Below are positions 39,908-64,000 of a stretch of DNA of 64,000 nucleotides, one piece after another (the stretch's first letter is position 1; every line of letters starts with the position of its first letter). The position numbers were made by a program, and so were the translations under genes. This DNA comes from Chiloscyllium plagiosum (lineage: Eukaryota): the NCBI RefSeq assembly GCF_004010195.1, contig NC_057757.1:1359524-1423523 (forward strand). The letters are read 5' to 3'. Below the pieces are notes generated by a model, which saw only the letters and a list, made by a program, of their open reading frames with translations, was not told where the DNA came from and ran no database searches.

Positions 39908-39986
39908 ATGGACAAGACCCCATGCAAACTGCAAAAGGCATTAGTCTTATTCTGTTTGCTTTCTCCTGCAATTTCAGTGACAACAG
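39908..39986 (+). CDS. First coding exon (signal peptide) of a mucin-like gene: MDKTPCKLQKALVLFCLLSPAISVTT+G
   Basis: Strong Kozak context CAAAATGG; basic n-region, hydrophobic core ALVLFCLL, small-residue c-region; consensus phase-1 donor CAG|GTGAGT compatible with the downstream phase-1 exons. Confidence 0.75.
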
Positions 39987-40139
39987 GTGAGTGGTCATGT
40001 ACAACACTATTCAATGTCAAAGTGCACAGCAAGACAATGCTGTAGGGAAAGAAAGTCATTTACATTGCTTACCGAATACTTTTCAAGAGTATTTAATTAT
40101 CTAAAAATGAAGGAAGTTCAGAAGAGTTTGGATGGAATT

Positions 40140-42340
40140 CTAGACCAATGAGTCTCATACCAGTGGTCGGAAAACTATTCTGAATTAGTCTCATTTTGAG
40201 AGGCAAGGTTTGATCAGGGATAGTCAGCATGACTTTGTCAGAAGGAGGTCATACCTCATAAATCTGGTTAAGTTTTTGAAAAGGTGACAAAGTAATGCAG
40301 TGGTGTATAAGCATAGAAACTTAGAAAACAGATATAGATTTCAGCAAGGTTTTTAACAAGGTCTCACATGGGAGCTGATAATGAAGGTAAAAGCACATGG
40401 GATCCAGGGTAACTTGGCAATTTGGATCAAAATTGGCTAAGGTGACAGAGGGTGATGGTGGAAAGCTGTTTGTGTGACTGGAGACCGATGTCCAGTTGTG
40501 TACTGCAGGGATCAATGCTGGGTCCCTTATTGCTCATGATATATATAAATGTTATAAGTGAGAATGTGAGGGTGAGGAGAGTGGCATGAATAATTTTGTG
40601 GGTGATGTAAAGATCGGCTCGGTGGTTCACAGCGAGGAATAAAGTCTTAGTTATGTTAGGATTTAGATGAATTGGTCACCTGGGAATAAGTTATGAACTA
40701 GAATCTAATCAAGGGATTCTGGGTGGTTTATATATAGAATAACAGATATGGAGCATGAGTTACTGACTGGAATCTAATCGAGTGATTCAGGATGGTTTAT
40801 ATCTCGATTAACAGATTCCCTGGATGGAGTTACAGCCTGAAATCTAATTGACAGTTTTGGGATTGTTTATATAAAGAACATGAGATGCCTTGGAGGGATT
40901 TACAGACAGGAAGTTGATCAGGGGCGAGGTGGTTTCGGGATTGTCTGTGTAGAATAACAGATACCGGATGTAAGTTTTAACTGGAATTGAATTGAGGGGT
41001 TCGGGGTTGTTTATGTCTAGAATAACAGATACCTGGGAGGGAGTTACCAAGTAGAATCTAATCGAGAGGTTCAGGGTGGTTTATATATAGAATAACAGAT
41101 TGCTGGGAATGAGTTACAGACTGGAATCTAATCGAGGGGTTCGGGGTGGTCTATAATGTTATAGGGAGAAGCTGAATAGGCTGAGCTGTTTTCCCTGGAG
41201 TGTTGAAGGCTGAGAGATGAGCTTATAAAGATTTATAAAGTCATGAGGGGCATGGATGGGGTAAATAGACAAGGTATTTTCCCTGGGGTGTGGGAGTCCA
41301 GACCTAGAGGGCATAGGTTTAGGTTGAGAGGGGAAAGATATAAAAGGGACCTAACGGGCAACTTTTCACGCAGAGAGTGGTGCGTATGTGGAGTGAGCTG
41401 CCGGAGGAGGTGGTGGAGGCTGGTACAAATATTGCATTTAAAAGGCATCTGGATGGGTATATGAATAGGAAGGATATGGGTTTGGTGCTGGCAAATGGAA
41501 CTGGGTTAGGTTAGGATATCTGGTTGGCATGGACATGTTGGACCGAAGGGTCTGTTTTCATGCTGTACATCTCTGTGACTCCATGATCAGTGACAGATGG
41601 AATTTAATCCTGATAAGTTTTGGGTGATGCACTTTGGAAGAAGTAACAAGGAAGTACTCAATGAATGGTCAGACACTAGGAAAAACGGAGGGACGTGAGG
41701 ATCTTAGGGTGCTTTTCCACAAATTCCTGAAGGTTTTAGGGCAGGTTAATAAGGTAGAAAAGAAAGCATCCAGGACACTTGTCTGTATCAGTCAAAGCAC
41801 AGATTATATAAACAAGGAGGTCATGTTGGGGCTTTGGTGAGACCACAGCTGCAGAACTGTGTGCAGTGTGGTCACCAGACAAAAGAAAGATGTGATTGCA
41901 CTGGAGGTAATGCAGAGGAGATTTACCAGAACATTACCTAGGAAGGAGCATTTTAGCTATGAAGAGAGGTTGGATAAACTCAGGTTGGTTTCTTCAGAGC
42001 AGAGAAGGCTGAAGGGAATCTGATAGAGGTGTGTAAGATTGTGAGGGACATGGACAGGGAGAACAGGAAGCAGCTGTTCCCCTTAGTTGGAGGGTCAATA
42101 ACAATGGGGCGCATTTCTAATGTGAAAGGCAGGAGGTTTCAAGAGGAGTCGAGGAAAAGTGTTTTCAACCAGAGGACGTGGAGATCTGGAATGTACTGCA
42201 TCACAACATTTAAAAGGTATTTGGATGAACACGTGAATTATCATAACATTCAAAGTTATAGGCCAAGTGCTAGAAAGTGGGATCAGTGTAGTTTAGCTTA
42301 GTTTTGGCAGGATCTCTTCTGTACAATATGATTCTGTGAT
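40140..42340 (+). mobile_element. Old CR1 LINE interrupted by a satellite and a younger CR1 3' end (~41155-41587)
   Basis: DFSKVFNKVSH, QGSMLGPLL, QMEFNPDKF, RPRGHRFRL. Confidence 0.75.
40680..41152. repeat. ~70-bp tandem repeat, ~7 degenerate copies
   Basis: GAATCTAATC-like anchors at 40701, 40770, 40840, 40910, 40984, 41054 and 41124; unit ~TATATAGAATAACAGATACCTGGGAGTGAGTTACAGACTGGAATCTAATCGAGGGGTTCGGGGTGGTT. Confidence 0.85.
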
Positions 42341-42489
42341 TAAATTGAGGAAGGAGACTCACTTAACGGAATAATGCCCACAGGTGACAGAGCAACTGCT
42401 GGAGATATTCCAAAAGATTCCATAAGCTATTTGGGGAGCACAAATGAAGTAGACACATGCACCAAACACATTAGCGGACATTAGGGAAT

Positions 42490-45400
42490 CAATTGGAGGG
42501 CACAGTCTTCCCTGGGAATATGTCCAGGGAAGTTATATGGGTGGAACTGCGAAATAAGAAAGGGATGATCACCTTATTGGGATTGTGTTATAGACTCCCC
42601 AGTAGTCAGCAGGAATTTGAGAAACAACTTTATAAGGATATTTCAGTTATCTGCAAGAATAATAGGGTGGTAATGGTGGGGGATTTTAACTTTCCAAACG
42701 TTGACTGCGACTACCATTGTGTTAAGGGTTTTAATGGAAATGAATTTGTGAAGTGTGTACATAAAAACTTTCTGATTCAGTATGTGGATGTACTGACTAT
42801 AGAAGGTGCAAAGTTTGAGCTAGACTTGGGAAATAAGGCAGGGCAGGTGACTGAGGTGTCAGTGGGGAGGCACTTTAGGGCCAGTGACCATAATTCTATT
42901 AATTTTGAAATAGTGATGGAACAGGATAGACCAGATCTAAAAGTTGAAGTTCTACATTAGAGGAAGGCCAATTTTGACGATATTTAGCAAGAACTTTTAA
43001 AGGTAGATTGGGCATGGATGTTTGCAGGTAAAGGGACGGCAGGAAAATAGAAAGGCGTCAAATATGAAATAACAAAAGTCCAGGAACAGTATGTTCCTTT
43101 TATGGTAAAAGGCAAAGCTGATAGGTGTAGCGAATGCTGAATGACTAGAGAAATTGAGGTTTATGTTAAGAAAAAGAAGGAAGCATATGTCAGGTATGGA
43201 CAGCAGAAAATCGATTAATCCATAGAACAATATAACGGCAGTAGGAGTATAGTTAAGAGGGAAGTCAAGATGGCAAAAAGGGGACATGACATCCCTTTGG
43301 CAAATTAAGGAGGATTATGTTAAAGAGGATCGAAAGGAATTTTATAAATTACATTAAGGAGAAAAGGGTAACTATGAAGAGAATAGGGCCTTTCAAAGAT
43401 CAGCAAGACAGCCTATGTGTGGAGCTGCAAGAGATGGGGGAGATACTAAACAAGTATTTTGTGTTAGTGTTTACTGTGGAGAAGGCCATGGAAGATCTAG
43501 AATGTGGGGACATAGATGGTAACATCCTGAAAAACGTCCATATGTTAGATGTGGAGGTGCTGGATGTCTTAAAGTGTGTAATGGTGTATAAATCCCCAGA
43601 ACCTGATCAGGGGAAGCTAGTGAAGTGATTGCTGGGCCCTTTGCTGAGATATTTGTATCATCGATAGTCACAGGTGATGTGCCGGAAAACTGGAGGTTGG
43701 CTAAAGTGGTGTCACTATTTAAGAAAGGTGGTAAGGACAAGCCAGGGAACTATAGACCAGTGAGCCTGACATCGCTGGTATGCAAGCTGTTGGATGGAAT
43801 CCTGCGGGACAGGATTTACACGCATTTGGAAAGGCAAGGTCTGATTAGGAATACTGATTTGGCTTTGTGCATGGAAAATCATGTCTCACTAACTTGCTTG
43901 AGTTTTGTGAAGAAGTAACAAAGAGGATTGATGAGGGCAGAGCGGTGGATGTGATCTATATGGACTTCAGTAAGGCGTTTGACAAGCTTCCTTGTGGGAG
44001 ACTGGTCAGCAATGTTAAATGACATGGAATATAAGGAGAACTAGCCATATGGATACAGAACTGGCTCGAAGGTAGAAGAGAGAGGGTGGTGGCAGAGGGT
44101 TGCTTTTCTGACTGGAGGCCTGTGACCAGTGGTGTGTCACAAGGATCGGTGCTGGGTCCACTGCTTTTCATCATTTATTTAAATGATTTGGATGAGATAT
44201 AGTTAGTAAATTTGCAGATGACATCAGAATTGGAGGTGTAGTGGATAGCGAAGAAGGTGACCTCCAAGTACAATGGGATATAGATCAGATGGGCCAATGG
44301 GCTGAGGAGTGGCAGATGGAGTTTAATTTAGATAAATGGGAGGTGCTGCATTTTGAAAAAGCAAATCAGAGCAGGACTTATACACTTAATGGTAAGGTCC
44401 TGGGGAGTGTTGCTGAACAAAGAGACCTTGGAGTTCAGGTTCATAGTTCCTTGAAAATGGAGTAGATAGGATCATGAAGAAGGCATTTGCGATATTTTTC
44501 TTTATTGGTCAGACCATTGAATATAAGAGTTGGGAGGTCATGTTATGGCTGTGCAAGATATTGGTTCGGCCACTTGTGGAATATTGTGTTCAATTCTGCC
44601 CTCCCTCCTATAGGAAGGATAATATGAAACTTGAAAGGGTTCAGAAAAGATTAACAAGGATGTTGCCAAGTTTGGAGGATTTGAGCTGTAGGAAGAATAG
44701 ATTGGAGCTGTTTTCCCTGGAGCGTCGGAGCCTGAGGGGTGACCTTATAGAGGTTTATAAAATCATGAGGATGGATAGAGTAAATAGATAAAGTCTTTTC
44801 CTTAGGGTGGGGAAATCCAGAACTGGAGGACATTAAGTTTATGGTGAGAGGGGAAAGATTTAAAAGAGACCTAAGGGGCAATTTTTTCACGCAGAAGGTG
44901 GTACGTGTATGGAATGAGCTGCCAGAGGAAGTGGTGGAGGCTGGTACAATTACGTCATTTTAAAAGGCATCTGGATAGGTACAGAGGAACCTCAATTATC
45001 TGAATATCAATTATCCAAATTTCGGATTATCCGAAGGTGATCTCAAGGTCCCGATAGAAACATTATGTCAAAGGGCTGTTTCAACCCTGATCGCATCTTT
45101 TGTTTGCAGGTACAATGATTTAAAACAAACTTGGGTCACTGAAATGCTGTCGAGAACAGCCCTGGACAGTCCAGGCACCGTCTCTAAATGACTGATGTCC
45201 TGCCTTCTCTCTCTCCCCCCACACTTTCCATGGAGTTCTACATAGGGGTGAACCCTAAACCCCCCCTTCCCAGATAATTTCTTCAACATTGTCCTGTACA
45301 GGGCATAGGTGGAACCGGTCAAAAAGTTGCAGTAAAAAGTTGTGTGCGTGTGCACATGTGTGTGAGTGTGAGTGTGTATATGCTATTTGGAGACATACCC

Positions 45401-45880
45401 CACAAAGGCAGCAGCAGTATTACTGTTGGTGTCCAAACCAGCTGCCCCGGAGGGGGGTGGGAGGGGTCAGCTGGGGTTAGGGACGCGGACGGGGGTTGGA
45501 CGGTGGCTTAGGGGGAATAGTGGTGCGGGATTGGGGGGCAGGCAGGGGCAGACGGAGTTGGGGGGGGGCAGGGGTGGGGTTGGGGGGGCGGGGGCTTGTG
45601 TGCTGTGTGCTGCTGCCTAGTCTCCTGAACGGGGAACAGACTTCACAGAAAACTCCGAGCCCAAGAGGGAATCAATTAACCGAATAATCAATTATCCGAA
45701 TGAAATAGTGCCCGCTCATCTCGTTCGGATAATTGAGGTTTCTCTGTATTGAATAGGAAGGGTTTAGAAGGAATATGGACCAAGTGCTGGTAAATGGAAC
45801 TAGAATAATTTAGGACAGCTGTTCGGCATGGACCAAAGGGTCTGTTTCTGTGCTGTGTACGTCTGTGACTCTATGACTAT
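42490..45880 (+). mobile_element. CR1 LINE, most of ORF2 (APE endonuclease + RT), disrupted
   Basis: EVIWVEL..MVGDFNFPNVD..SDHNSI; PGNYRPVSLTS; YMDFSKAFDK; KFADD; 3' tail CTCTATGACTATG. Confidence 0.9.
44982..45746. mobile_element. Tc1/mariner-type MITE, TIRs related to the 26669 element
   Basis: 23-bp TIRs CAGAGGAACCTCAATTATCTGAA / TTCGGATAATTGAGGTTTCTCTG, TA on both sides, inserted in the CR1 3' end; G-rich interior. Confidence 0.85.
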
Positions 45881-46259
45881 GAGATTTGGAGATGGAAAAG
45901 GTCCCTGCTTGAGAATCATAAAGAGAAGAGGAAGCAATACAGATCCAGTATGGGCATTTGGAGAAAATGATCCAACCGAGCATTTAATTGGAACTAGGTT
46001 AACACCTCATTTGGAAGGCAGACCTATCACAATACTGCATACTAGTATCGACTGTATTGGACGAGAGTTGGTGTCCATTAGTTGTCAAACTTTTCTTAAT
46101 CTTTTATTGGCTGTGAGTCACATTGGTAAGGCCACATGTTATTCTCAATCCCTAGCTGCCTTTGCGATGGTTGTGGAGAGCTATTTGAATTGCCCGAAAT
46201 GTTGATTTTCCTGCTCCTTGGATAAAGAACTGGTTGAGCAACTGGAGACAGAGAGTAGT

Positions 46260-46542
46260 AGTTGAAGGGAGTTTCTTGAAATGGAGAAAGGCAATTCAAT
46301 CATAGGACAAGCTAGAGAATTCCTAGAAACATGGAACTCATCCGTGGACTCTATCAACAAGCACATAGATCCAATATACTGGCACTACAACCAGAACCAG
46401 CAACCAGAAGCAGCAGAAATGAAACCAAATAAATTCCAAAAGGCACAGTACAGCAGCACTTCACAGGAGGGTTGAGGATGTCACCTGGACATGGGACGAA
46501 ACCTCTGCAAATTAACTTCCCAGCTCAACGAATATACCCACA
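46260..46542 (+). mobile_element. Penelope-like element 3' end (second family)
   Basis: IIGQAREFLETWNSS..SINKHID translation; degenerate TGAGGA..GAAAC core near 46473-46502. Confidence 0.7.
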
Positions 46543-46653
46543 ATGACGACAACTAATGTGATATTTAAGAGGAATATCGACAACAGCACAGTATCCACAT
46601 TAACCAGCAGTCCAGGGTTTCAATCACATCTGCAGAGACTTCAACATCAGGAC
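46540..46653 (+). pseudogene. Diverged, dead paralog of the mucin cassette exon
   Basis: ACAATGACGACAACT...TCAACATCAGGAC|ATAAATGGGAGACATTGTGGCCTAT aligns with the exon and donor of the array. Donor GT lost, acceptor replaced by Penelope, internal frameshift. Confidence 0.6.
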
Positions 46654-46696
46654 ATAAATGGGAGACATTGTGGCCTATTGGCTCAATTTTTAATTA

Positions 46697-47003
46697 GATT
46701 TAGATTTGATTCCCTGCAGTGTGGAAACAAGCCCTTCAGCCCAACAAGTCCACACTAACTCTCTGAAGAGCAATTCACCCAGACCCATTTCCCTCTGACT
46801 AATGTACCTAACACTATGGGCAATTTAGCATGGCCAATTCACCTAACCTGCACAATCTTTGGACTGTGGGAGAAAACCAGAGCATCCGGAGGAGACCCAC
46901 GCTGACACGGGGAGAATGTGCAAACAGACAGTTGCCTGAGGCTGGAATTGAACCTGGGACTCTGGTGCTATTAGGCAGCAGTGCGAACTACTGAGCCACC
47001 GTG
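46697..47003 (-). mobile_element. HE1-type V-SINE
   Basis: Same structure as 22695-23027. Confidence 0.85.
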
Positions 47004-47895
47004 TTGACGGGGGAAGGAAAGAAATTGAAAATTTTGTTCTTGGAGGGCAGTTCTGGATCTGGCATCCGTGGGAAAACTTGTAGATTCCATTAGTACTGCA
47101 GGGAGAGTGGAATAGAAAATGTGCTTTCACACCTTTATGACTCTAGTTACCTTTAATGGGCTTGCCAAAGTGCCTAACCCAGAGTGACAGTTAGCATTTC
47201 GTTTCCAGAGAAAGTGCACCGGACATGAGCGTTTTAATGTGAAGTAGTTCGGATTGCTCCAGAACGTAACAGCATAAGTGACAGCAGGAGGATGAGGCCA
47301 TTCAGCCCATCTAGCCTGGTCTATCAAAAATGAAATTGTGTCTTAACTTTCTTCAGCTCTACCTCCCTGGACTATTAATACACACTTGATGTTAATAATA
47401 TATAGAAATATTTTGATTATAGACTTGAACATACTCAGTGACTGATCCTTCTACACTCAGATGCATGGTGTGCACAAAAGATGAATCATTTTCTGAGTAA
47501 AAACATTTCTCCTCGAATTTCTCTTGAATTTGTATAGAATGATCCATTGTCCTTGACCCCCCTCCAGTAGAATTATCTTTCCAGTGTTGATCGAATGGAA
47601 AGTATGTATGTCAGAATGTACAAATTGGGCTTTTCTGAAAGATGACATGTGGCACTGTAGTCCTCCCTCAGCCAATATGATGCAGCCTGGATTTATGCAA
47701 GCTCAGTCTGGATTTGGGGTTTCTGTCTGGAGGAGTGTAAGAGATGCACAATTCCCTTTCCATTTGTAACAAATGGAAATTGACATCAAACCATAGCACT
47801 GAACGGAATGTGATTCTGATGTGGAAAGAGAATGAAATGGATGAAGGAAATGTATTCAGTATAAAATCTGACACCATGAAAATTATCTTAAACAG

Positions 47896-48009
47896 AAACA
47901 AAGACAACAACTGAGGACTCGACAATGGAGTCTACTTCAGTGGACACAACAGTGGTAACCATCAGTTCAAATCCTACCCTGACATCCACTGATGTTTCAA
48001 CATCAGGAG
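47896..48009 (+). pseudogene. Ser/Thr-rich cassette exon copy 1, donor mutated: ETKTTTEDSTMESTSVDTTVVTISSNPTLTSTDVSTSG
   Basis: Branch CTGAC 47868-72, acceptor AAACAG|, open frame, but the donor reads G|GAAAGT instead of GTAAGT. Confidence 0.6.
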
Positions 48010-49224
48010 GAAAGTGGCAGACATTGTGACCTATCATGAGAACATATCCAACTTTAATTATTCTGTACAACTGTGCACGATCACTTCACCTGTAATTTGT
48101 CTTGCCCTATTTTAATAGAGCATAACTGATTTATTGGAAACAATTAAACTTGCAGAGGGCAGGGGTTTCTGAGGTATTGCCAATGTTTAACAGAGTGAGC
48201 AATGGGAGCTAATTTATGAATATTATGATTACTTAGAAAACAAGGAAGTAATAGCTAGAATGGATACTTTCTCTTCTTGATGATGTTTAGGGGGTGGAGG
48301 TTAGCCCAGGACACTATCAATGGTTCAACTGCTTTTGGACAAATAACACAGTTAAATCCAATTCTCCCACAAGTGACTATGGAAGCATTGACAAAGTAAT
48401 GTCACTTTGGAGAGTTTATATTTCAGCACTCCCTCTGCATTGCTGACCCCCAGCCTGGATCTGCTGGAAGTAACTCTGGGGTCGACTTAATGACCTTTCG
48501 ACTGAGTATTTTGCAAGTGCCTGTCCTGAAAAGAGTGACAGTTACCATTTTATTCCCAGAGAAGGTGCACCGGACGTGTGCGTTTTAGTGTAAAGCAGTC
48601 AGGATTGCTCCAGAACATCAGAGCATACGTGACAGGAGGAGGACAAGGCCATTCAACCTGTCTAGCCTGTTCTATCAAAAATAAAATTGTGTCTTTCCTT
48701 TCTTCAATGCTAGGTCCCTGGACTATTGCTGCAGCACTTGATGTTATTAATATATAGAAATATTTTGATCACAATCTTGAACACACTCAGTGACTGAGCC
48801 TTCTGCACTTAATTGCATTCATCATCTTCTGACTAAAACATTTCTCCTAGTCTTTGTCCTGAATTTGTCGAGAATGTTCCCTTCTCCTTGACCCCACTCC
48901 AGTGGAATTATCTTTCCAATGTTTACCTATTTGAAAGTATGAATGTTAGAATGTACAAATTGGACTTTTCTGAAAGATGAACTGTAGTCCTCCATCAGCC
49001 AACCTATGGTGCAGCCTGGATTTGTACAAACTCAGTCTGGGTCTTGGGTTTCAGCCTGGAGGAGTGTAAGAGTTGCACAATTCCCTTTCCATTTGTGACA
49101 GATGGAAATTGACATCAACCCATAGCATTGAATGGAATATGATTCTGATGTGGAAACAGGATGAAATGAATGAAGAAAATGCATTCAATATAAAACCTGA
49201 CCCCATGAAAATTATCTTAAACAG

Positions 49225-49338
49225 ACACTAAGACAACAACTGGGGACTCGACAATGGAGTCTACATCAGTGGACACAACAGTGACAACCATCGGCTCAAA
49301 TCCTACCCTGACACCCACTGATCCGTCAACATCAGGAG
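49225..49338 (+). CDS. Cassette exon 2: DTKTTTGDSTMESTSVDTTVTTIGSNPTLTPTDPSTSG
   Basis: 114 nt, CAG| ... G|GTAAAT, phase 1-1, open. Confidence 0.8.
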
Positions 49339-49512
49339 GTAAATGGCAGACATCATGACCTATAGTTAGAACATATCCAACTGTAATTATTCTCTGAGAG
49401 ATTGTATACGATGACGTCACCTGCAATTTGTCTTACCCTAATTTGAATTCAGAGCATTACTAATTTATTGTAAACAATAAAACTTCCAGTGTGTGGAGTT
49501 TCTGAGGTATCG

Positions 49513-49677
49513 ACGTTTCGGGCATAAGCCCTTCTTCAGGAATCAGGGTCCTGAAGAAGGGCTTATGCCCGAAACGTCGATTCTCCTGTTCCTTTGATGC
49601 TGCCTGACCTGCTGCACTTTTCTAGCAACACATTTTTAAGCTCTGATTTCCAGCATCTGCAGTCCTCACTTTCTCCT
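49513..49677. mobile_element. Penelope-derived palindromic insertion with hammerhead-like cores and 16-bp TSD
   Basis: TSD AGTTTCTGAGGTATCG at 49497-49512 and 49678-49693; perfect 33-bp inverted arms 49509-49541 and 49549-49581. Confidence 0.85.
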
Positions 49678-50223
49678 AGTTTCTGAGGTATCGTCGATGT
49701 TTAACAAAGCGAGCGATAGGAGCCAATTTATGAACATCAAGATTACTTCAAAAACAAAGAACAAAGAGATAGAATGGATACACTTTCTTCTTGATGACAT
49801 TTAGGGAATGAAGATTAGCCCAGGACAATATCAACAGTTCAACTGCTTTTGAACCAATAACACAGTTAGATCCAATCCTCCCACAAGAGACTATGGAAGC
49901 AATCACAAAGTAATGTCACTTTGGAGAGCCAATATTGCAGCACTCCCTCTGCATTGCTGATCTCCAGCCTGGATCTGCTGACTGTAACTCTTGGGTTGAG
50001 TTAATGAGCTTCTGACTGAGTTTTATGCGCTCACCTCACAGCACAGAGAGACTCCCAATGTAATAAGCTTGCCAATGAGCCTGTCCTGAACAGTGAGACA
50101 GATACCATTTATTTCCAGGGCAAGTGCACCGGACATGAGTGTTGCAATGTACATCAGTCAGGATTGCTACAGAACATAAGAGCATAAGTGACAGCAGGAG
50201 GATGAGGCTATTCAGCTTATCTA

Positions 50224-51388: not shown

Positions 51389-51746
51389 ATATTCTCATGT
51401 TCCGTTGTCCTTAACCCCACTCCAGTGGAATTATCTTTCCAATGTTGATCCAGTGGAAGTCAGAATATGCAAATTGGGCTTTTTTGAAAGATGACATGTG
51501 GCACTGCAGTCCTCCCTCAGCCAACCTACAGTGCAGCCTGGATTTGTGCAAGCTCAGTCTGGGTCTGGGGTTTCAGTCTGGAGGAGTGTAAGAGATGCAG
51601 AATTCCACTTCTGTTTGTAACAAATGGAAATTGACATCAAACCATAGCACTAAACAGAGTGTGATTCTGGTGTGGAAACAGGTTGAAATGAATGAAGAAA
51701 ATATATTCAGTATAAAATCTGACACCATGTAAATTATCTTAAACAG

Positions 51747-51860
51747 AAACAAAGGCAACAACTGAGGACTTGACAATGGAGTCTACATCAGTAGACACTA
51801 CAGTGGCAAACATCAGCTCAAATCCTACCCTGACATCTATAGATCCATCAACATCAGGAG
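51747..51860 (+). CDS. Cassette exon 3: ETKATTEDLTMESTSVDTTVANISSNPTLTSIDPSTSG
   Basis: 114 nt, CAG| ... G|GTAAAT, open; has gained an N-I-S sequon. Confidence 0.8.
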
Positions 51861-53145: not shown

Positions 53146-53259
53146 AAACAAAGACAACAACTGAGGAATTGACAATGGAGTCTACTTCAATGGACACATC
53201 AGTGGTAACCATCAGCTCAAATCCTACCCTGACATCCACTGATATGTCAACACCAGGAG
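53146..53259 (+). CDS. Cassette exon 4: ETKTTTEELTMESTSMDTSVVTISSNPTLTSTDMSTPG
   Basis: 114 nt, CAG| ... G|GTAGAT (weaker donor), open. Confidence 0.72.
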
Positions 53260-54530
53260 GTAGATGGCAGACATTGTGACCTATAGTTAGAGCATATCCA
53301 ACTGTAATTATTCTCTGAGAGATTGGTACACGACCACTTCACCTGCAATTTGTCTTGCCCTAATTTTAATAGAGCATAACTGATTTATTGGAAACAATTA
53401 AACTTCCAGTGGGAGGAGTTTCTGAAGTATAGCCAATTTTAATAGAGCGAGTGATGGGACCCAATTTATGAACATCAAGATAACTTAGAAAACAAGGAGG
53501 AAAGAGCTAGACTGGATACTCTCTCTTCTTGATGATGTTTCAGGGATAAAGATTAGCACAGGATAGTATCAACAGTTCAACTGCTTTTGGACCAATAACA
53601 CAGTTAGATCCAATCCTCACACAAGAGACCATGGAAGCAATCACAAAGTAATGTCATTTTTGGAGAGTCGATATTCTAGGACTCCCTTTCCATTGCTGAC
53701 CTCCAGCCTAGATCTGCTGGCAGTAACTCTGGGGTTGATATGCTGCTGTTCTGACTGAGTATTATTTGCTCACCACAGAGTACAGAGAGATCCCCAATGT
53801 AATAAGCTGCCAATATACCTGTCCAGAACAGAGTGACAGTTATCATTTCATTTCTAAAGTAAGTACACTGAACATGTGTGTTTTGGCGTAAAGCAGTCAG
53901 GATTGCTACAGAACGTAGGAGCATAAGTGACAGCAGGAGGATGAGGCCATTCAGCAAGCAAAACTAAAATTGTGTCTTAAATTTCTTCATCGCTATTTCC
54001 CAGGAGTATTGATGCAGCACGTGATCTTATTAATATGTAGAAATATTTTGATCACATTCTTGAACGCACTGTGACTGAGCCTTCTGCACTCAACTGCATT
54101 GTGTGCACAAAAGATTCATCACCTTCTGACTAAAAACATTTCTCCTTGTCTTTGTCCTGAATTTGTTGAGAATGCTTCCTTGTCCTTGACCCCACTCCAG
54201 TGGAATTATCTTTCCAATGTTGATCCAGGGGAAAGTTTGAATGTTAGAATGTACAAATTGGGCTTTTCTGAAAGATGACATGTGGCACTGTGGTCCTCCC
54301 TTAGCCAACCTACTGTGTAGCCTAGATTTGTGCAAGCTCACTCTGGGTCTGGGTTTTCTGTCTGGAGGAGTGTAAAAGATGCATAATTCCCTTTCCATTT
54401 GTAACAAATGGAAATTGACATCAAACCATAGAACTGAACAGAATGTGATTCTGATGTGGAAACAGGATGAAATGGATGAAAAAAATGTATTCAGTATAAA
54501 ATCTGACACCATGAAAATTATCTTAAACAG

Positions 54531-54638
54531 AAACAAAGATAATAACTGAGACAATGGAGTCTACATCAGCAGACACAACAGTGACCACCATCGGCTCAAA
54601 TCCTACCCTGACATCCACTGATCTGTCAACATCAGGAA
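54531..54638 (+). CDS. Cassette exon 5: ETKIITETMESTSADTTVTTIGSNPTLTSTDLSTSG
   Basis: 108 nt (6-nt in-frame deletion), CAG| ... A|GTAAAT, open. Confidence 0.7.
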
Positions 54639-55911
54639 GTAAATGGCAGCCATTATGACCTATCGTTAGAAAAAGTTTTCTCTGCGAGATTGGTACACGA
54701 TCACTTCACCTGCAATTTGTCTCGCCCTGATTTTAATAGAGAGCAAAACTTCTTATATAAACAATTAAACTTCCAGAGGGAGGAGTTTCTGAGGTATCGC
54801 CAATGTTTAACAGAGCAAGCGATGGGAGCCAATTTATGAACATGATGATTACTCAGAAAACAAGGAGGGGAGAAATAGACTGGATACACTTTCTTATTGA
54901 TGATGTTTAGGGGATCAAAATCAACCCAGGACACTATCAATTCTCCAACTGCTTTTGGAGCAATAACACAGTTAGATCCAATCCTCCCACAAGAGACTTT
55001 GAAGCAATCACAAAATAATGTCACTTTGGAGAGTCAATATTGCAGCACTCCCTCTGCATTGCTGACCTTCAGCCTGGATCCTGGCAGTAACTCTGAAGTC
55101 GATTTGATGAGCTTCTGACTGAGTATTATGTACTCACCGTGGAGCACAGAGAGAGTCCCAATGTGATCAGCTTGCCAAGAAGCCTGTCCTGAAAGAGTTA
55201 CAGTTACCATTTCCTTTCCAGAAAAAGTGCACTGGATACGTGCGTTTTAGTGTAAAGCAGTCAGGATTGCGGCATGACCGTAAAAGCATAAGTAACAGCA
55301 GGAAGATGAGACCATTTAGCCCATCTAGTCTTTTCCATCAGCATTTAAATTGTTTCTTACATTTTTCAATGCTTGTTTCCTGGACTCTTGCTGCAAAACA
55401 TGATGTTATTAACCTATAGAAAGTTTTAATCATGCTCTTGAACACACTCAGTGACTGAGCCTTCTGCACTTAGTTGCATTGTGTGCACTAAAGACTCATC
55501 AATTTCTGACTAAAAATCATTTCTCCTCATCTTTGTCCTGAATTTGTCGAGAAAGTTCCATTCTCCTTGACCCCACCCCAGTGAAATTATCTTTCCAGTG
55601 TTGATCGAGTGGAAAGTATGAATGTTAGAATGTGGAAATTGGGCTTTTCTGAAAGATGACATGTGGCACTGTAGTCCTCCCTCAGCCATTTTACTGTGCA
55701 GCTTGGATTTGTGCAAGCTCCGTCTGGGTCTGGGGTTTCACTCTGAAGGAGTGTAAAAGATGCACAATTCCCTTTCCATTTGTAACAAATGGAAATTGAC
55801 ATTAAACCATAACATAGAACGGAATGTGATTCTGATGTGGAAACAGGATGAAATGGATGAAGAAAATGTATTCAGTATAAAATCTGACATCATGAAAATT
55901 ATCTTAAACAG

Positions 55912-56025
55912 AAACAAAAACAACAACTGTGGACATGACAATGGAATCAACATCAGTGGACACAACAGTGACAAACATTGTCTCAAATCCTACCCTGACA
56001 TCCACTGATCCGTCAACATCAGGAG
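55912..56025 (+). CDS. Cassette exon 6: ETKTTTVDMTMESTSVDTTVTNIVSNPTLTSTDPSTSG
   Basis: 114 nt, CAG| ... G|GTAAAT, open. Confidence 0.8.
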
Positions 56026-57224
56026 GTAAATGGCAGACATTGTGACCTTTAGTTAGAGCATATCCAACTATAACCCTTCTCTGAGAGATTGGTTAATGAT
56101 CACTTCACCTGCAATTTGCCTTGCCATAATTTTAATAGAGAGCATGACTGATTTATTGTATACAATTAAACTTCTACAGGGAGGAGTCTCTGAGTATAGT
56201 CAATTTTTAATAGAGTAAGCAATGGGAGCCAATTTATGAACATCAAGATTAGTTATAAAACAAGGAGGAAAGAGCTAGAATGGATACTCTCTCTTCTTGA
56301 TGGTGTTTTAGAGATAATGTTTAGCACAGGATATTATCAATGGTTCAACTGCTTTTGGACCAATAACACAGTTAGATCTAATCTTCCCACAAAAGACTAT
56401 GGAAGCAATCACAAAATAATGTCACTTTGGAGTGTCGATATTGCAGCATTCCCTCTGCACAGCTGACCTCCAGCCTGGATCAGCTGGCAGTAACTCTGGC
56501 GCTGAGTTAATGAGCTTCTGACTGAGTTTTATGCGCTATCCTCACAGCACAGAGAGAGTCCTAATGTAATATGCTTGCCAATGAGCCTGTCCTGAACAGT
56601 GAGACAGATAGCAATTTATTTCCAGAGGAAGTGCATCGGACATGTGCATTTTAGCATAAAGCAGTCAGGATTGCTACAAAACAGAACTGCATAAGTGACA
56701 GCAGGAGGATGAGGCTATTCAGCCAATCAATCATATTCTAGCAAAAATACAACTGTGTCTTAAATTCTTCATCGTTATTTCCCAGGAGTATTGATGCAGG
56801 ACCTGACTGAGCCTTCTGCACTCAGTTGCATTGTGTGCACAAAAGATTCATCATCTTCTGATTAAAAACATTTCTCCTTGTCTTTATTCTGAATTTTTGA
56901 TAATGTTCCCTTGTCCTTAACCCTTCTCCAGTGGAATTATCTTTCCAGTGTTGATCTATTTGAAAGTATGACATGCGGCACTGTAGTCCTCCCTCAGCCG
57001 AACTACCATGCATCTTGGATTTGTGCAAGCTCAGTCTGGGTCTGGGGTTTTCTGTCTGTAGGAATGTAAAAGATGCACAAGTCCCTTTCTATTTGTAACA
57101 AATGGAAATTGACATCAAACCATAACATAGAACAGAATGTGATTCTGATGTGGAAACAGGATGAAATGGATGAAGAAAATGTATTCAGTATCAAACCCGA
57201 CATCATGAAAATTATCTTAAACAG

Positions 57225-57338
57225 ACACAAAGACAACAACTGAGGAATTGACAATGGAGTCAACTTCAGTGGACACAACAGTGACAACCATTGGCTCAAA
57301 TCCTACCCTGACATCCACTGACCCATCAACATCAGGAG
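57225..57338 (+). CDS. Cassette exon 7: DTKTTTEELTMESTSVDTTVTTIGSNPTLTSTDPSTSG
   Basis: 114 nt, CAG| ... G|GTAAAT, open; 20 of 38 residues are Ser/Thr. Confidence 0.8.
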
Positions 57339-57734
57339 GTAAATGGCAGTCATTGTGACCTGTCGTTAGAACATATCCAACTGTAATTATTGTCTGAGAG
57401 ATTGGTCATGATCACTTCATTTGCAATTTTTCTTGCCTGAATTTTAACAGAGCATAAGTAATTTATTGCAAACAATTAAATCTCCAACAGAACGAGTTTC
57501 AGAAGTATAGCCAATGTTTAATACAATGAGCGATGGGAGCCACTGTATGAACATCAAGATTTTGTGGAAAACAAGGGGAAATAGCGAGAATAGATACTCT
57601 CTCTTCTTGATGATATTTCCGGGATGAAGATTAGCACAAAATACAATCAATGGTTTAACTGCTTTTGGGCCAATAACACAGTTAGGTGCAATCCTTCCAC
57701 AAGAGACTATGGATGCAATCACAAAGTAATGTCA

Positions 57735-57851
57735 TGATTTGTTGATGCAGGTGTTGGACTGGGGTGTACAAAGATAAAAATCACACAACACCAGGTTATA
57801 GTCTATATTGTCCAGGTTATAGGACTATAACCTGGTGTTGTGTGATTTTTA
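57735..57851. mobile_element. 117-bp hairpin insertion with 14-bp TSD
   Basis: TSD ACAAAGTAATGTCA at 57721-57734 and 57852-57865; 29-bp inverted arms 57775-57803 and 57823-57851. Confidence 0.85.
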
Positions 57852-58659
57852 ACAAAGTAATGTCACTTTGGAGAGTCGATATTGCAGCACTCCCTCTGCA
57901 CTGGGCCCCTTCAGCCTGGATCTGCTGACAGTAACTCTGGGGTTGTGTTCATGAGCTTCTGACTGAGTTTTGTGCGCTCACCTCACAGCACAGGGAGAGT
58001 CCCAGTGTAATAAGCTTGCCAATGAGCCTTTCCTGAACATTGAGATAGATACCATTTTACTTCCAGACCAAGTATACTGGAGATGTGCGTTTTAGTGTAA
58101 AGCAGTCAGGATTGCTACATGACCGTAAGAGCATAAGTGACAGTAAGAGGATGAGGCCTTCAGCCCATTTAGCCTCTTCCAGCAGAATTAAAATTGTGCC
58201 TTACCTTTTTTCAATGCTCGTTCCCTGGACTCTTGCTGCAGCAATTGATGCGATTAACATATAGAAATATTTTGATCATATTCTTGAACACACTCAGTGA
58301 CTGAGCCTTCTGCACTCAGTTGCATTGTGCGCACTAAAGACTCATCATTTTCAGACTAAAATACATTTCTCCTTGTTGTTGTCCTGAATTTATCGAGAAC
58401 GTGCTGTTCTCCTCGACCTCACTCCAGTGGAATTATCTTTCCAGTGTTGATCCAGTGGAAAGTATGAAAGAATGTTAGACCCGGTCTAGGTCAGAGGAGT
58501 GTAGGAGATGCACAACTTCCTTTCCATTTGTAACAAATGGAAATTGACATCAAACCGTAACATTGAACAGAATGTCATTCTGATGTGGAAACAGGATGAA
58601 ATGATTGAAAACAGTGCATTCAGTATCAAATCTTACACCATGAAATTTATCTTAAACAG

Positions 58660-58758
58660 AAACAAAGACAACTGAGACAATGGAGTCTACATCAGTGGAC
58701 ACAACAGTGACAACCATTGGCTCAAATCCTACCCTGACACCCACTGATCCGTCAGGAG
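58660..58758 (+). CDS. Cassette exon 8: ETKTTETMESTSVDTTVTTIGSNPTLTPTDPSG
   Basis: 99 nt; three separate deletions (3+6+6 nt), all in frame; CAG| ... G|GTAAAT. Confidence 0.78.
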
Positions 58759-59492
58759 GTAAATGACAGACATTGTGACTTATCGTTAGAACATATCCAA
58801 TTGTAATTTGTCTCTGAGAGACTGGTACACGACCACTTCACCTGCAATTTGCCTTGCACTAATTTTAATTCAGTGCATGACAAATTTATTGTAAACAATT
58901 CAATGTCCAGTGGGACGAGTTTCTGAAGTATAGCCAATGTTTAACAAAGCAAGTGATGTGAGCCAATTTATGAACATCAAGATTACTTAGAAAACAAGGG
59001 AGAAATATGTGGAATTGATACTGTCTCTTCTTGATGGTATTTTGGAGATGAAGATTAGCCAAGGATACAATCAATGGTTCAACAGCTTCTGAAGCAATAA
59101 CACAGTTAGATCCAATTCTCCAACAAGTGACTATGGAAGCAATCACAAAGTAATGTCACTTTGGAGTGTCGATATTGCAGCACTCCCTCTGCAGTGCTGA
59201 CCTCCAGCCTGGATCTGCTGGCAGTAACTCTGGGGTTGAGGTAATGAGCTTCTGACTGTGTTTTATGCACTCACCCCACAGCACAGAGATAGTCCCAATG
59301 TAATAAGCTGCCAATGTGCCTGTCCTGAACAGTGAGACAGATACCATTTTACTTCCAGAGAAAGTGCAGCCTGGATTACTGCAAACTCAATCTGGGTTTG
59401 GGGTTTCTGTCTGAAAGAGTGTAAAAGATGCACAAGTCCCTTTCCATTTGTAACAGTATAAAATCTGACACCATGAAAATTATCTTGAACAG

Positions 59493-59606
59493 AAACAAAG
59501 ACAACAACTGAGGACTCGACAATGGAGTCTACTTCAGTGGACACAACAGTGGTAACCATCAGCTCAAAACCTACCCTGACATCCACTGATCTATCAACAT
59601 CAGGAG
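59493..59606 (+). CDS. Cassette exon 9: ETKTTTEDSTMESTSVDTTVVTISSKPTLTSTDLSTSG
   Basis: 114 nt, CAG| ... G|GTAAGT (consensus donor), open. Confidence 0.82.
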
Positions 59607-61609
59607 GTAAGTGGCAGACATTGTGACCTATCATGAGAACATATCCAACTTTAATTATTCTGTCCAACTGTGCACGATCACTTCACATGCAATTTGTCTT
59701 CCCCTACTTTTAAAAGAGAGCATAACTGATTTACTGTTAAAAATTAAACTTCCAGATGTATGAATTTCCAAAGAAAAGCCAATGTTTAATAGAGAGAGCG
59801 ATGGGAGCTAATTTATGAACATCAAGATAACTTAGAAACCAAGGAGGCAATAGCTAGAATGGATACTCTCTGTGCTTGATGATGTTTAGGGGAATGAAGA
59901 TCAGCCTAGAATACTATCAATGCTCCACTGCTTTAAGAGCAATAACATGTTTAGATCGAATCCTCCCACAAGAGACTACGGAAGCAATCACAAAGTAATG
60001 TCACTTTGGAGAGTCAATATTGTAGCACTACCACTGCATTGCTGTCCTCCAACATGGATCTGCTGGAAGTAACTCTGGGGTTGATTTGATGAGTTTCTGC
60101 CTGAGATTTTTGCGCTCACCATGGAGCACAGAGAGAGTCCCAATATAATAAGCTGCTGAAGTGCCTGTCCTGAGCAGGGTGACAGTTACCATTTTATTCC
60201 CAGACAAAATGCACCGGACACGTGTGTTTTAGTGTGAAGTAGTTCGGATTGCTCAAGAACGTAAGGGCATAAGTGACAGCAGGAGGTTGAGGCCATTCAG
60301 CTCATCCAGCCTGTTGTATCAAAAATGAAATTGTGCCTTCCCTTTTTTTCAAGGCTAGTTCCCTGGACTCTTGCTGCAACACTTGATGTTATTAACATAT
60401 AGAAATATTTTGATCAAATTCTTGAACACACTCAGTTACTGAGCCTTCTGCACTCAGTTGCATTGTGTGCACTGAAGACTTTTCGTTTTCATACCAAAAA
60501 AAATTTCTCCGCCTCTTTGCCGTGAATTTGTACAGAATGGTCCCTTGTCCTTCACTCCAGTGGAATTATCTTTCCAGTGTTGATCGAGTGGAAAGTATAT
60601 CTGTCAGAATGTACGAATTGGGCTTTTCTGAAAGATGATGTGGCAATGTTGTCCTCCCTTAGCCAACCTACCGTGCAGCCTGGATTTGTGGCAAGCTCAG
60701 TGTGGGTCTGGGGTTTCCGTCTGGAGGAGTGTAAGAGATGTTCAATTCCCTTTCCGTTTGTAACAAACTTCAATATCGGGAGGTGAATGGCAGACATTGT
60801 GACCTATCGTTAGAACATATCGAACGTATATCCAACTTTTAGCTAGAATGGATACTCTCTCTTATTGATGAAGTAGCATAGCACAGGATACAATCAATGG
60901 TTCAACTGCTTTTAGGACAATAACACAGTTAGATGCAATCCTCCCCGACATCCACTGATATGTCAACATCAGAAGGTAGATGGCAGACGTTGTGACCTAT
61001 AGTTAGAACATATCCAACTGTAATTTTTCTCTGAGAGATTGGTTAATGATCACTTTATATGCAATTTGTCTTGCCCTACTTTTAATATTAGGAGGTAGGT
61101 GGCAGACATTGTGACCTATCATGAGAACATATCCAACTTTAATTATTCTGTACAACTGTACACGATCACTTCACCTGCAATTTGTCTTGCCCTACTTTTA
61201 ATAGAGAGCATAACTGATTTAATGGAAACAATGAAACTTCCACAGGGAGGAGTTTCTAAGGTATCGCCAGTGTTAAACAGAGCAAGCGATGGGAGCCAAT
61301 TTATGAACATCATGTTTTCTTGGAAAACAAGGAAGAATGAGAGAGAATAGATCCACTTTCTTCTTGATGATGTTTAGGGGATGAATATCAGCCCAGGACA
61401 CCATCAACGGTTCAATTGCTTTTGGGCCAATAATACAGTTAGATTCAATCCTCCCACAAGAGACCATGGATGGAATCACAAAGTAATATCACTTTGGAGA
61501 GTCGATATTGCAGCACTCCATCTGCACTGGGCCCCTTCAGCCTGGACCTGCTGACAGTAACCCTGGGGTTGGGTTCATGAGCTTCTGACTGAGTTTTGTG
61601 CGCTCACCT

Positions 61610-62109
61610 NNNNNNNNNNNNNNNNNNNNNNNNNNNNNNNNNNNNNNNNNNNNNNNNNNNNNNNNNNNNNNNNNNNNNNNNNNNNNNNNNNNNNNNNNNN
61701 NNNNNNNNNNNNNNNNNNNNNNNNNNNNNNNNNNNNNNNNNNNNNNNNNNNNNNNNNNNNNNNNNNNNNNNNNNNNNNNNNNNNNNNNNNNNNNNNNNNN
61801 NNNNNNNNNNNNNNNNNNNNNNNNNNNNNNNNNNNNNNNNNNNNNNNNNNNNNNNNNNNNNNNNNNNNNNNNNNNNNNNNNNNNNNNNNNNNNNNNNNNN
61901 NNNNNNNNNNNNNNNNNNNNNNNNNNNNNNNNNNNNNNNNNNNNNNNNNNNNNNNNNNNNNNNNNNNNNNNNNNNNNNNNNNNNNNNNNNNNNNNNNNNN
62001 NNNNNNNNNNNNNNNNNNNNNNNNNNNNNNNNNNNNNNNNNNNNNNNNNNNNNNNNNNNNNNNNNNNNNNNNNNNNNNNNNNNNNNNNNNNNNNNNNNNN
62101 NNNNNNNNN
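61610..62109. other. Assembly gap (500 N)
   Basis: Run of exactly 500 N inside the tandem array. Confidence 1.
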
Positions 62110-62522
62110 TGCTGTGCTGTTCCAGCAATCAAGTTTCAACTCCAATTCTCCAACAGGTGACTATGGAAGCAATCACAAAGTAATGTCACTTTGGAGTGTC
62201 AATATTGCAGCACTCCCTCTGCAGTGCTGACCTCCAGCCTGGATCAGCTGGCAATAACTCTGGGGTTGAGTTAATGAGCTTCTGAATGAGTTTTATGCGC
62301 TCACCCCACAGCACAGAGATCATCCCAATGTAATCATCTGCCAATGTGCCAGTCCTGAACAGTGAGACAGATACCATTTTACTTCCAGAGAAAGTGCAGC
62401 CTGGGTTAATGCAAACTCAGTCTGGGTTTTGGGTTTCTGTCTGAAGGAGTGTAAAAGATGCACAAGTCCCTTTCCATTTGTTACAGTATAAAATCTGACA
62501 CCATGAAAATTATCTTAAACAG

Positions 62523-62636
62523 AAACAAAGACAACAACTGAAGACTCGACAATGGAGTCTACTTCAGTGGACACAACAGTGGGAACCATCAGCTCAAAAC
62601 CTACCCTGACATCCACTGATCTATCAACATCAGGAG
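62523..62636 (+). CDS. Cassette exon 10: ETKTTTEDSTMESTSVDTTVGTISSKPTLTSTDLSTSG
   Basis: 114 nt, CAG| ... G|GTAAGT, open. Confidence 0.82.
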
Positions 62637-63918
62637 GTAAGTGGCAGACATTGTGACCTATCATGAGAACATATCCAACTTTAATTATTCTGTACAACTG
62701 TACACGATCACTTCACCTGAAATTTGTCTTGCCCTACTTTTAATAGAGAGCATAACTTATTTACTGTAAAAAATTAAACTTCCAGAGATAATAATTTCTA
62801 AAGAAAAGCCAATGTTTAATAGAGCGAGCGATGGGAGCTAATTTATGAACATCAAGATAACTTTGAGACCAAGGAGGCAATAGCTAGAGTGGATACTCTC
62901 TGTGCTTGATGATGTTTGGGGGAATGAAGATCAGCCCAGAATACTATCAATGCTCCACTGCTTTAAGAGCAATAACACATTTACATCCAAACCTCCCACA
63001 AGAGACCAGGGAAGCAATCACAAAGTAATGTCACTTTGGAGAGTCAATATTGTAGCACTACCTCTGCATTGCTGTCCTCCAACCTGGATCTGCTGGAAGT
63101 AACTCTGGGGTTGATTTGATGAGTTTCTGCCTGAGATTTTTGCGCTCACCATGGAGCTCAGAGAGAGTCCCAATATAATAAGCTGCTAAAGTGCCTGTCC
63201 TGAACAGGGTGACAGTTACCATTTTATTCCGAGACAAAGTGCACCGGACACGTGTGTTTTAGTGTGAAGTAGTTCGGATTGCTCCAGAACATAAGGGCAT
63301 AAGTGACAGCAGGAGGATCAGGCCATTCAGCTCATCTAGCCTGTTGTATCAAAAATGAAATTGTGCCTTCCCTTTTTTTTAAGGCTAGTTCCCTGGACTC
63401 TTGCTGCAACACTTGATGTTATTAACATATAGAAATATTTTGATCAAATTCTTGAACACACTCAGTTACTGAGCCTTCTGCACTCAGTTGCATTGTGCCC
63501 ACTGAGGACTCTTCGTTTTCATAGCAAAAAAACATTTCTCCGCCTCTTTGCCGTGAATTTGTACAGAATGGTCCCTTGTCCTTCACTCCAGTGGAATTAT
63601 CTTTCCAGTGTTGATCGAGTGGAAAGTATATCTGTCAGAATGTACGAATTGGGCTTTTCTGAAAGATGACGTGGCAATGTTGTCCTCCCTTAGCCAACCT
63701 ACCGTGCAGCCTGGATTTGGGCAAGCTCAGTCTGGGTCTGGGGTTTCCGTCTGGAGGAGTGTAAGAGATGTTCAATTCCCTTTCCGTTTGTAACAAATGG
63801 AAATTGACATCAAACCATAGCATTGAACAGAATGTCATTCTGATGTGGAAACAGGATGAAATGAATGAAAAAATGTATTCAGTATAAAACCTGACACCAT
63901 GAAATTTATCTTAAACAG

Positions 63919-64000
63919 AAACAAAGACAACTGAGACAATGGTGTCTACATCAGTGGACACAACAGTGACAACTATCGGCTCAAATCCTACCCTGACATC
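63919..64000 (+). CDS. Cassette exon 11 (cut by window end): ETKTTETMVSTSVDTTVTTIGSNPTLT...
   Basis: CAG| acceptor, open, shares the 3+6 nt deletions of copy 8. Confidence 0.72.

Follow-up and report, generated by a model that had tools for sequence, protein, structure and literature searches.

A satellite-like exon array in a carpet shark, most likely the stalk of a MUC3-lineage membrane mucin gene

The ~1.4-kb "satellite" of the window (the whole 64,000-nucleotide stretch of DNA that was analysed) most likely encodes the stalk of a gut-type membrane mucin in a shark and is made of about two dozen copied exon-plus-intron blocks. Judged from its sequence, the gene is quite probably a type I membrane mucin gene of the MUC3/MUC12/MUC17 lineage, covering roughly 75 kb and 30-plus exons in this carpet shark, whose protein identities point to the genus Chiloscyllium. 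The downstream EGF, SEA and TM exons, the homology to other sharks and the linkage to ACHE together make it a membrane mucin of the MUC3/12/17-cluster type and not a secreted orphan. The predicted order is a signal exon, at least 23 phase 1-1 exons each carrying a 28–38-aa Ser/Thr-rich unit, EGF, SEA with a GSIV motif, a second Cys-rich module, TM and a short tail, which as assembled would give a protein of about 1,180–1,240 aa. All exons listed below are on the + strand, and "extended" coordinates continue the numbering past the window (contig position = value + 1359523).

Eleven exon-like copies start inside the window when checked copy by copy. Those of 114 nt are copies 1 (47896..48009, open, with a GA donor), 2 (49225..49338), 3 (51747..51860), 4 (53146..53259), 6 (55912..56025), 7 (57225..57338, with a variant branch motif), 9 (59493..59606) and 10 (62523..62636, directly 3′ of a 500-N gap at 61610–62109). 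The others are copy 5 (54531..54638, 108 nt, with an in-frame 6-nt deletion), copy 8 (58660..58758, 99 nt, with 9- and 6-nt deletions) and copy 11 (105 nt), which occupies 63919..64000 and runs on to extended 64023, so that its donor lies outside the window. Units are spaced ~1.3–1.4 kb apart in seven of ten intervals, the off-size ones being 2522 (element insertions), 833 (a deletion) and 3030 (rearranged, containing the 500-N gap). Rearranged units have also left three 5′-truncated exon fragments at 60770..61120, with the donor kept and the acceptor missing. A dead full-length copy of the distal type (46572..46653, 82 nt) has its donor turned to AT and is also frameshifted against its live 84-nt sibling at extended 80909.

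The first-pass annotation had described in every unit a branch-point-like CTGAC, a 99–114 nt open frame with ~50% Ser/Thr and no Cys or aromatic residues, and a GT donor, all in phase 1-1, and most of this description holds. The acceptor motif is TTAAACAG in 10 of 11 window copies and TTGAACAG in copy 9; nine of 11 have CTGAC at −28, the variants being copies 7 and 8, as had been said; and all window copies have 3n lengths and an uninterrupted phase-1 frame, with 46–57% Ser/Thr and no C, F, W or Y. The GT donor is found in 10 of 11 copies and not in copy 1 (47896), which, given its GA, is probably skipped in splicing. A scan for AG..GT segments of 84–117 nt, open and with at least 45% Ser/Thr, returned nothing in 140,400 non-array bases on both strands; the identical scan of the array gave 27 acceptor hits on the + strand and none on the − strand. 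With its period limit of 500, Tandem Repeats Finder did not pick up the ~1.4-kb array.

Past the window, 13 further complete repeat exons extend to extended 82922, for a total of 24 complete phase 1-1 exons. All 24 are open in one frame, while each other frame is open in 1 of 24; all keep AG and 23 keep GT. If spliced, the joined exons encode about 836 aa with 51% Ser/Thr (T 33.6%, S 17.6%, P 6.1%), a large Pro/Thr/Ser-rich (PTS) repeat domain as in SEA-type mucins. The introns of the array are about 84–85% identical, the 5′ units being old by this measure (84%), and the 3′ half contains younger multi-unit blocks that are 92–98% identical; units may have multiplied by unequal crossing-over between such introns. 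A genome search with the repeat exon gave at least 40 matches; those listed fall either within the array or on one of three small contigs, and a dispersed-transposon origin was rejected on this basis. In a weak search of the repeat part of P0002 against proteins of 386–2000 aa, none of 5422 candidates was significant.

The proposal that the PTS domain grew by serial duplication of exon-plus-intron blocks fits every test run, with its O-glycosylation a prediction. Equal indel and stop rates in exon and intron segments had been named as evidence against it, and the rates are not equal: repeat exons carry no frameshifting indel, against 4.45 expected from their own introns (P about 0.012), where 50 of 56 indels are non-3n and only 2 of 117 exon-sized windows lack a frameshifting indel. 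Gains of stops or C/F/W/Y, a class picked after the first-pass claim had been seen, number 0 of 55 in exons against 4.6 expected (P about 0.009), and synonymous changes 22 against 15.2 (P about 0.03). Stops alone (0 against 2.0) are not significant, and substitution density in exons is not significantly lower (Fisher P 0.12), identity being 89% in exons and 85% in introns; in all of these rate tests the copies are not independent of one another. Of the AG and GT sites internal to the introns, only 25 of 86 and 13 of 61, respectively, are invariant across 11 introns. Since every exon is 3n and phase 1-1, a unit can be gained, lost or skipped with a change in stalk length and none in frame, and selection would therefore bear more on frame and splice sites than on the residues themselves.

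The phase-1 signal-peptide-like exon that had been placed upstream of the array is indeed present at 39908..39986, a single copy in the genome search, with the phase-1 donor CAG/GTGAGT; its role as a signal peptide is suggested by its hydrophobicity. The interval from ACHE to the array has 1354 ATGs and 17 candidates that run from an ATG to a strong phase-1 donor; this exon is by a wide margin the most hydrophobic of them (2.86 versus 1.33 for the runner-up). The ortholog models examined contain no homolog of it. Reads from 4 of 16 runs on 39700–59699, of unstated tissue, were uninformative on splicing and gave no predicted-exon joint among the 15 joints listed, with 1547 more outside the listing: two runs are DNA-like across introns, one is mainly dispersed repeats (~2% read) and one has no match at all.

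Downstream, where a search for SEA, EGF and TM exons had been advised, they are found in frame 34–51 kb beyond the window. These are an EGF-like exon (extended 98038–98139), three SEA exons (100678–100796, 104252–104310 and 104717–104856), a linker (106325–106393), a second Cys-rich exon (110370–110532), a TM exon judged by its hydrophobic run (112016–112192), and tail exons (112825/112828–112934, one ending at 113541 with an uncertain acceptor, and one from 114979). The seven core exons, like those tail exons that were tested, have AG and GT at their borders and can be joined without a break in frame, and the C-terminal part (334 aa) is 80% identical to the mucin-17-like protein of whale shark and 78% to that of zebra shark. 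Stops and frameshifts, of which the present gene is free, occur in sister copies nearby. G-S-V/I-V is the self-cleavage motif of SEA domains, and GSIV is present here, predicting cleavage. PF01390 (SEA) scores above cut-off in three of four ortholog models scanned, the fourth lacking SEA exons, and the first SEA exon of the present gene taken alone falls below it (E 8e-4). Cys-rich modules flank SEA, with 4 Cys before it and 10 between the GSIV motif and the TM; Pfam EGF matches occur only below cut-off, and the exact domain order in human MUC3/12/17 is EGF-SEA-EGF.

A single TM helix (extended 112016–112192) followed by a cytoplasmic tail (112828–112934) closes the protein. Of the earlier "secreted or membrane glycoprotein", the membrane half stands, on the TM exon and the C-terminal homology to mucin-17-like proteins, and the secreted mucin is rejected. 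An adhesion GPCR was also rejected, since the exons found finish with a single TM helix and a short tail; when the zebra shark ortholog was searched against the PDB, the SEA region of ADGRF1 (E 1e-4) was the best match, followed only by two weaker ones. In the tail exon the orthologous acceptor position reads AT, with an in-frame AG 18 nt upstream; the candidate acceptors for the tail are extended 113457, 113485 and 113369. None of the 8 splice forms tested reaches a class I PDZ C-terminus, and a stop precedes a relic Y-T-V end, still in frame in a sister copy; the class I PDZ tail has apparently been lost. Because the PDZ end is not reached in these forms and the stop precedes the relic, we class the gene as a homologous variant, neither MUC17 itself nor a standard member of the cluster.

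Synteny, suggested as a way to name the gene, places ACHE upstream as at the human MUC3 cluster: it lies 66 kb away on the opposite strand, with a best match to AChE of 990 bits versus 698 for the best cholinesterase-only entry. Some 2.0 Mb downstream, the scaffold also has a candidate PAI-1-like serpin, of which one exon scores 64.1 bits for PAI-1 versus 60.4 for nexin. Ten of 150 matches were looked up by name, giving five mucin-17-like or mucin-3B-like and five uncharacterized or hypothetical proteins (all database labels); MUC13 was not among them, and the upstream neighbour is ACHE. Probable orthologs are the RefSeq mucin-17-like proteins of whale shark (XP_048475975), zebra shark (XP_048380272), Mustelus and Narcine, with C-terminal identities of 54–80%, and the models of C. 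punctatum (GCC21518) and catshark (GCB78110) both contain 38-aa units. Independently of the present reconstruction, models of other sharks join homologous units at matching boundaries: four units in C. punctatum, the final unit and EGF in zebra shark, and the 38-aa units of catshark. These models are automated predictions; by inspection, all six have no signal peptide, at most about five units and no full array. The gene is thus hidden from annotation in part, its signal exon and most repeats being missing from relatives' models and its C-terminal half being annotated as mucin-17-like; the present reconstruction completes it where automated models of several sharks miss the signal peptide and most of the mucin domain.

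Passages of PMC9578598 and PMC13643018 describe ACHE as flanking the human MUC3A-MUC3B-MUC12-MUC17 cluster. With the mammalian cluster the shark gene shares the PTS, EGF-like, SEA, TM and tail domains, tandem sister genes, ACHE upstream, and a candidate SERPINE1-like gene downstream on the same scaffold, here about 2 Mb away. It differs in that none of the splice forms tested ends in a class I PDZ motif, and in its PTS domain, which is one giant exon there and at least 23 small exons here (24 separate exons by count of complete copies). Chicken Muc13 is likewise a SEA-type membrane mucin, its PTS domain having at least 12 repeats of 20 aa, each in an exon of its own (PMC1552070), although it is a distinct gene next to HEG with shorter units. 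The Schistosoma mansoni SmPoMuc genes resemble the array in that an exon and its flanking introns form ~1-kb tandem genomic repeats, up to 20 per gene, with broken assemblies (passages of PMC2576457), but they belong to an unrelated flatworm family with a 27-nt exon, introns >94% identical and exon repetition in transcripts. With such precedents the surprise is limited, and the first-pass annotation overrated it: exon-per-repeat mucins are already published, in the parts of PMC1552070 and PMC2576457 cited. Passages of PMC9712336 do not treat multi-exon mucin domains, and the top-ranked literature results included no study of shark MUC3-cluster genes, although supplementary tables could contain them.

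What is new is the exon-per-repeat build in the MUC3 lineage, the apparently lost PDZ tail and the ACHE-linked cluster in a shark. Passages of PMC9578598 suggest that the MUC3-type cluster first emerged in amphibians, and those of PMC1552070 that MUC3/12/17 homologs are seemingly absent from chicken and fishes; an ACHE-linked cluster in a cartilaginous fish would be older than the amphibian origin. A satellite-like array can, moreover, make up most of a coding sequence. The product would be O-glycosylated, SEA-cleaved and part of the apical glycocalyx, probably in the gut by analogy with MUC17. The gene is a direct test case for the 2006 proposal, in the chicken Muc13 paper (PMC1552070, in part), that multi-exon PTS domains permit control of length by splicing. 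We would tentatively go further, to a reading that we consider rather doubtful: one repeat per symmetric exon may be an old, conserved design of the shark MUC3 lineage (the 38-aa unit is common to catshark) that is put to use, cells splicing differing numbers of units and so tuning glycocalyx thickness within one animal, with a neighbour that uses the mammalian single-exon VNTR in a cluster that would stem, linked to ACHE, from the jawed-vertebrate ancestor.

The gene could also be real and use only a few terminal repeat exons, most of the array being a recently amplified macrosatellite within an intron; its exon-like parts would be skipped, and would look intact only because they are young. 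The zebra shark model with about 1.4 units and the whale shark model with none agree with this, as do the 92–98% identical 3′ blocks and the weak splice signals of the array, where acceptors are pyrimidine-poor (6–10 of 17) and several donors score 1.6–4.6 in our own matrix. We nevertheless think it unlikely: the old 5′ units are still all open, intron windows of exon length almost never escape frameshifting indels, and the copy without a donor had decayed.

A recent pseudogene, or a mainly non-surface product starting without a signal peptide at an exon at 37700–37757 and damaged at its tail splice site, is very improbable. The whale shark model does start with the homolog of this exon (37700–37756, 12 of 18 identical), and the AT at the tail acceptor, the stop ahead of the PDZ-like end and the broken sister copies would suit such decay. 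The 37.6-kb region, however, adjoins a dispersed repeat, the extracellular and TM exons are all intact at 78–80% identity to orthologs, the in-frame AG could offer a substitute acceptor, and the whale and zebra shark models finish in a matching shortened frame.

That copy number was inflated by haplotype or gap-edge duplication during assembly, we regard as exceedingly improbable in spite of four N gaps, 96–98% identical blocks across them, and three unplaced contigs that carry seven additional complete copies. At about 16–25% divergence from unit 1, the 5′ units cannot represent alleles, and contigs of two public runs, one possibly the assembly's own source, match separate units including their introns. 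Such an artefact touches the exact number of units and not the architecture.

Copy by copy, the exon-like units of the array are as the first-pass annotation had claimed: 11 start in the window, each 99–114 nt long, a multiple of three and open, with 46–57% Ser/Thr and neither Cys nor aromatic residues. The branch-point-like CTGAC lies at −28 in 9/11 of these copies, and the claimed GT donor holds for them generally, with the exception of copy 1, where it is GA; a second copy with a GA donor is found on an unplaced contig. The array ends at 82922 (extended coordinates, i.e., window numbering carried on past 64000); the assembly count gives 24 complete exons and one dead copy, together with two pieces cut by gaps and five fragments that retain only a donor, with four N gaps interrupting the array. 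Seven further complete copies on three unplaced contigs match the array at 93–98% and may represent either the second haplotype or units that the array lacks. The exon-like pattern is not chance, since no array-type segment occurs on either strand in 140,400 non-array bases used as control. Dispersed repeats are inserted in the array introns (window 49510–51400 and 57735–57850), one insertion with an apparent target-site duplication near 49500/49680, and the first intron carries a 70-bp tandem repeat of about 7 copies (40678–41155).

Equal indel and stop rates in exons and introns had been named as evidence against the gene. Among 11 full-length units from the 20 core copies, chosen to exclude those with gaps or with large insertions/deletions, the introns hold 56 distinct indels, 50 of them not multiples of three, while the exons show no frameshifting indels versus 4.45 expected at the intron rate (P ≈ 0.012); the exon deletions present are of 6, 9, and 6 nt. 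The copies share a history and so are not independent in these tests, which also cover substitutions. Of the 55 distinct substitutions across all 20 core copies, with the four divergent distal copies (one carrying two Phe) excluded, 22 are synonymous versus 15.2 expected (P ≈ 0.03), and none gains a stop or C/F/W/Y versus 4.6 expected (P ≈ 0.009), a residue class chosen post hoc, after the first-pass claim was known. Stops alone are not significant in the core copies (0 vs. 2.0 expected), nor is the difference in substitution density between exons and introns (P = 0.12; identity 89% vs. 85%). Splice dinucleotides of the repeat exons are better conserved than ordinary intronic AG/GT, and the copy at 46572 has both lost its donor and become frameshifted. 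Taken together, the indel, substitution, splice-dinucleotide, and copy-46572 results argue that constraint acts on frame and splice sites more than on exact residues, as a mucin stalk would predict.

Beyond the window, where a search for exons such as SEA, EGF, and TM had been suggested, AG/GT-bounded, in-frame exons follow on the plus strand: EGF-like (extended 98038–98139), three SEA exons that include a GSIV motif (100678–104856), a linker, a second Cys-rich exon (110370–110532), the TM exon (112016–112192), and tail exons. Over this C-terminal part of 334 aa, identity to “mucin-17-like” models is 80% for whale shark, 78% for zebra shark, 64% for Mustelus, and 54% for Narcine; the first two of these models score above the Pfam SEA cut-off. 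With predicted splicing, the joined model has about 1,180–1,240 aa, including a PTS region of 836 aa. Among automated predictions, the EGF exon directly follows the last repeat unit in the zebra shark model, four units are linked at this array's boundaries in that of C. punctatum, and the catshark model has units of 38 aa. A C. punctatum protein is 100% identical over one exon and 88–97% over matching repeat exons, identities that suggest a bamboo shark, probably of the genus Chiloscyllium, as the source. The gene structure, as predicted from sequence, is well supported as real. By inspection, all of these predicted models lack a signal peptide. In whale shark, the model opens with a homolog of window 37700–37756 and passes straight to the EGF exon; the corresponding plus-strand segment here (37700–37757) runs from ATG to a strong donor, shares 12/18 residues with that start, lacks a signal peptide, and adjoins a dispersed repeat, and may be either a first exon used as an alternative or a mis-prediction common to both species. 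Four sequencing runs were compared at the locus: two give DNA-like contigs spanning introns, a single-cell run, of which about 2% was read, covers mainly dispersed repeats, and the fourth gives no match.

None of the 8 splice forms tested reaches the PDZ-like motif, all ending earlier. The stop in the last exon precedes a relic Y-T-V end that is still in frame in a sister copy; models from whale shark and zebra shark terminate in the same shortened frame. Where those two models place the tail acceptor, both this gene and the sister copy have AT, with an in-frame AG 18 nt upstream. Close sister copies of the C-terminal exons, with stops and frameshifts, lie at extended 281600–324300 (+) and on another contig (G000:C101892:55800–63200); one keeps its PDZ-like last exon in frame.

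The gene is homologous to and syntenic with the MUC3 cluster, whose mucins are described as sharing a single PTS exon and a class I PDZ motif (PMC13643018). We class it as a variant, not as MUC17, because both features are absent from the gene as predicted. Chicken Muc13 is described as having one repeat per exon, and splicing has been put forward as the control of its length (PMC1552070); for Schistosoma SmPoMuc, tandem exon+intron units of about 1 kb are described, in up to 20 copies (PMC2576457). Unequal exchange between homologous introns would add or remove whole exon+intron units, symmetric phase would make each gain, loss, or skip frame-neutral, and the translated units would make up an O-glycosylated stalk carried by a membrane anchor that is cleaved in SEA. 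The product would work in the manner of MUC17, and from what is established for this and further SEA mucins (PMC13643018, PMC9578598) we infer, by analogy, gut expression, glycosylation, and SEA cleavage. Among the leading results of a literature search, no published study of shark MUC3-cluster genes was found; PMC4948705 treats gel-forming mucins and did not inform the present gene.

The cluster is described as ACHE-MUC3-MUC12-MUC17-TRIM56-SERPINE1, with a first emergence suggested in amphibians (PMC9578598). Synteny, proposed in the first-pass annotation as a means of naming the gene, places an acetylcholinesterase gene (best PDB match acetylcholinesterase, 990 bits) 66 kb upstream, head-to-head on the minus strand, at 2395–3960 of segment L026 (G000:C48:1331918–1333483, C48 being contig NC_057757.1 of a 3.56-Gb genome). 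In the roughly 210 kb that follow the mucin gene's end there are additional EGF-SEA-TM genes, as well as broken copies. About 2.0 Mb away is a minus-strand serpin gene (segment L060, G000:C48:3459501–3469500); the exon tested in it has PAI-1 (SERPINE1) as its best match. Between ACHE and the mucin gene, window 1–5589 is a 32-bp GC-rich minisatellite of about 175 copies with stops in all six frames. Extended 147000–187500 (−) and 195700–231600 (+) hold two more SEA-type mucin genes, inverted in orientation and with intervening gaps; their PTS regions were not found. A long, gap-split S/T/D-rich open frame with a 13-aa tandem unit (G000:C48 ~1715470–1718680, +; extended 355949–359154) resembles the single-exon VNTR of classic mucins and lies in the same cluster; in the downstream DNA examined, it is followed by no EGF/SEA exon. 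Downstream of the cluster, segment L057 carries a RADX-like ORF (1265–1909, +; Pfam PF17659, E = 4e-10).
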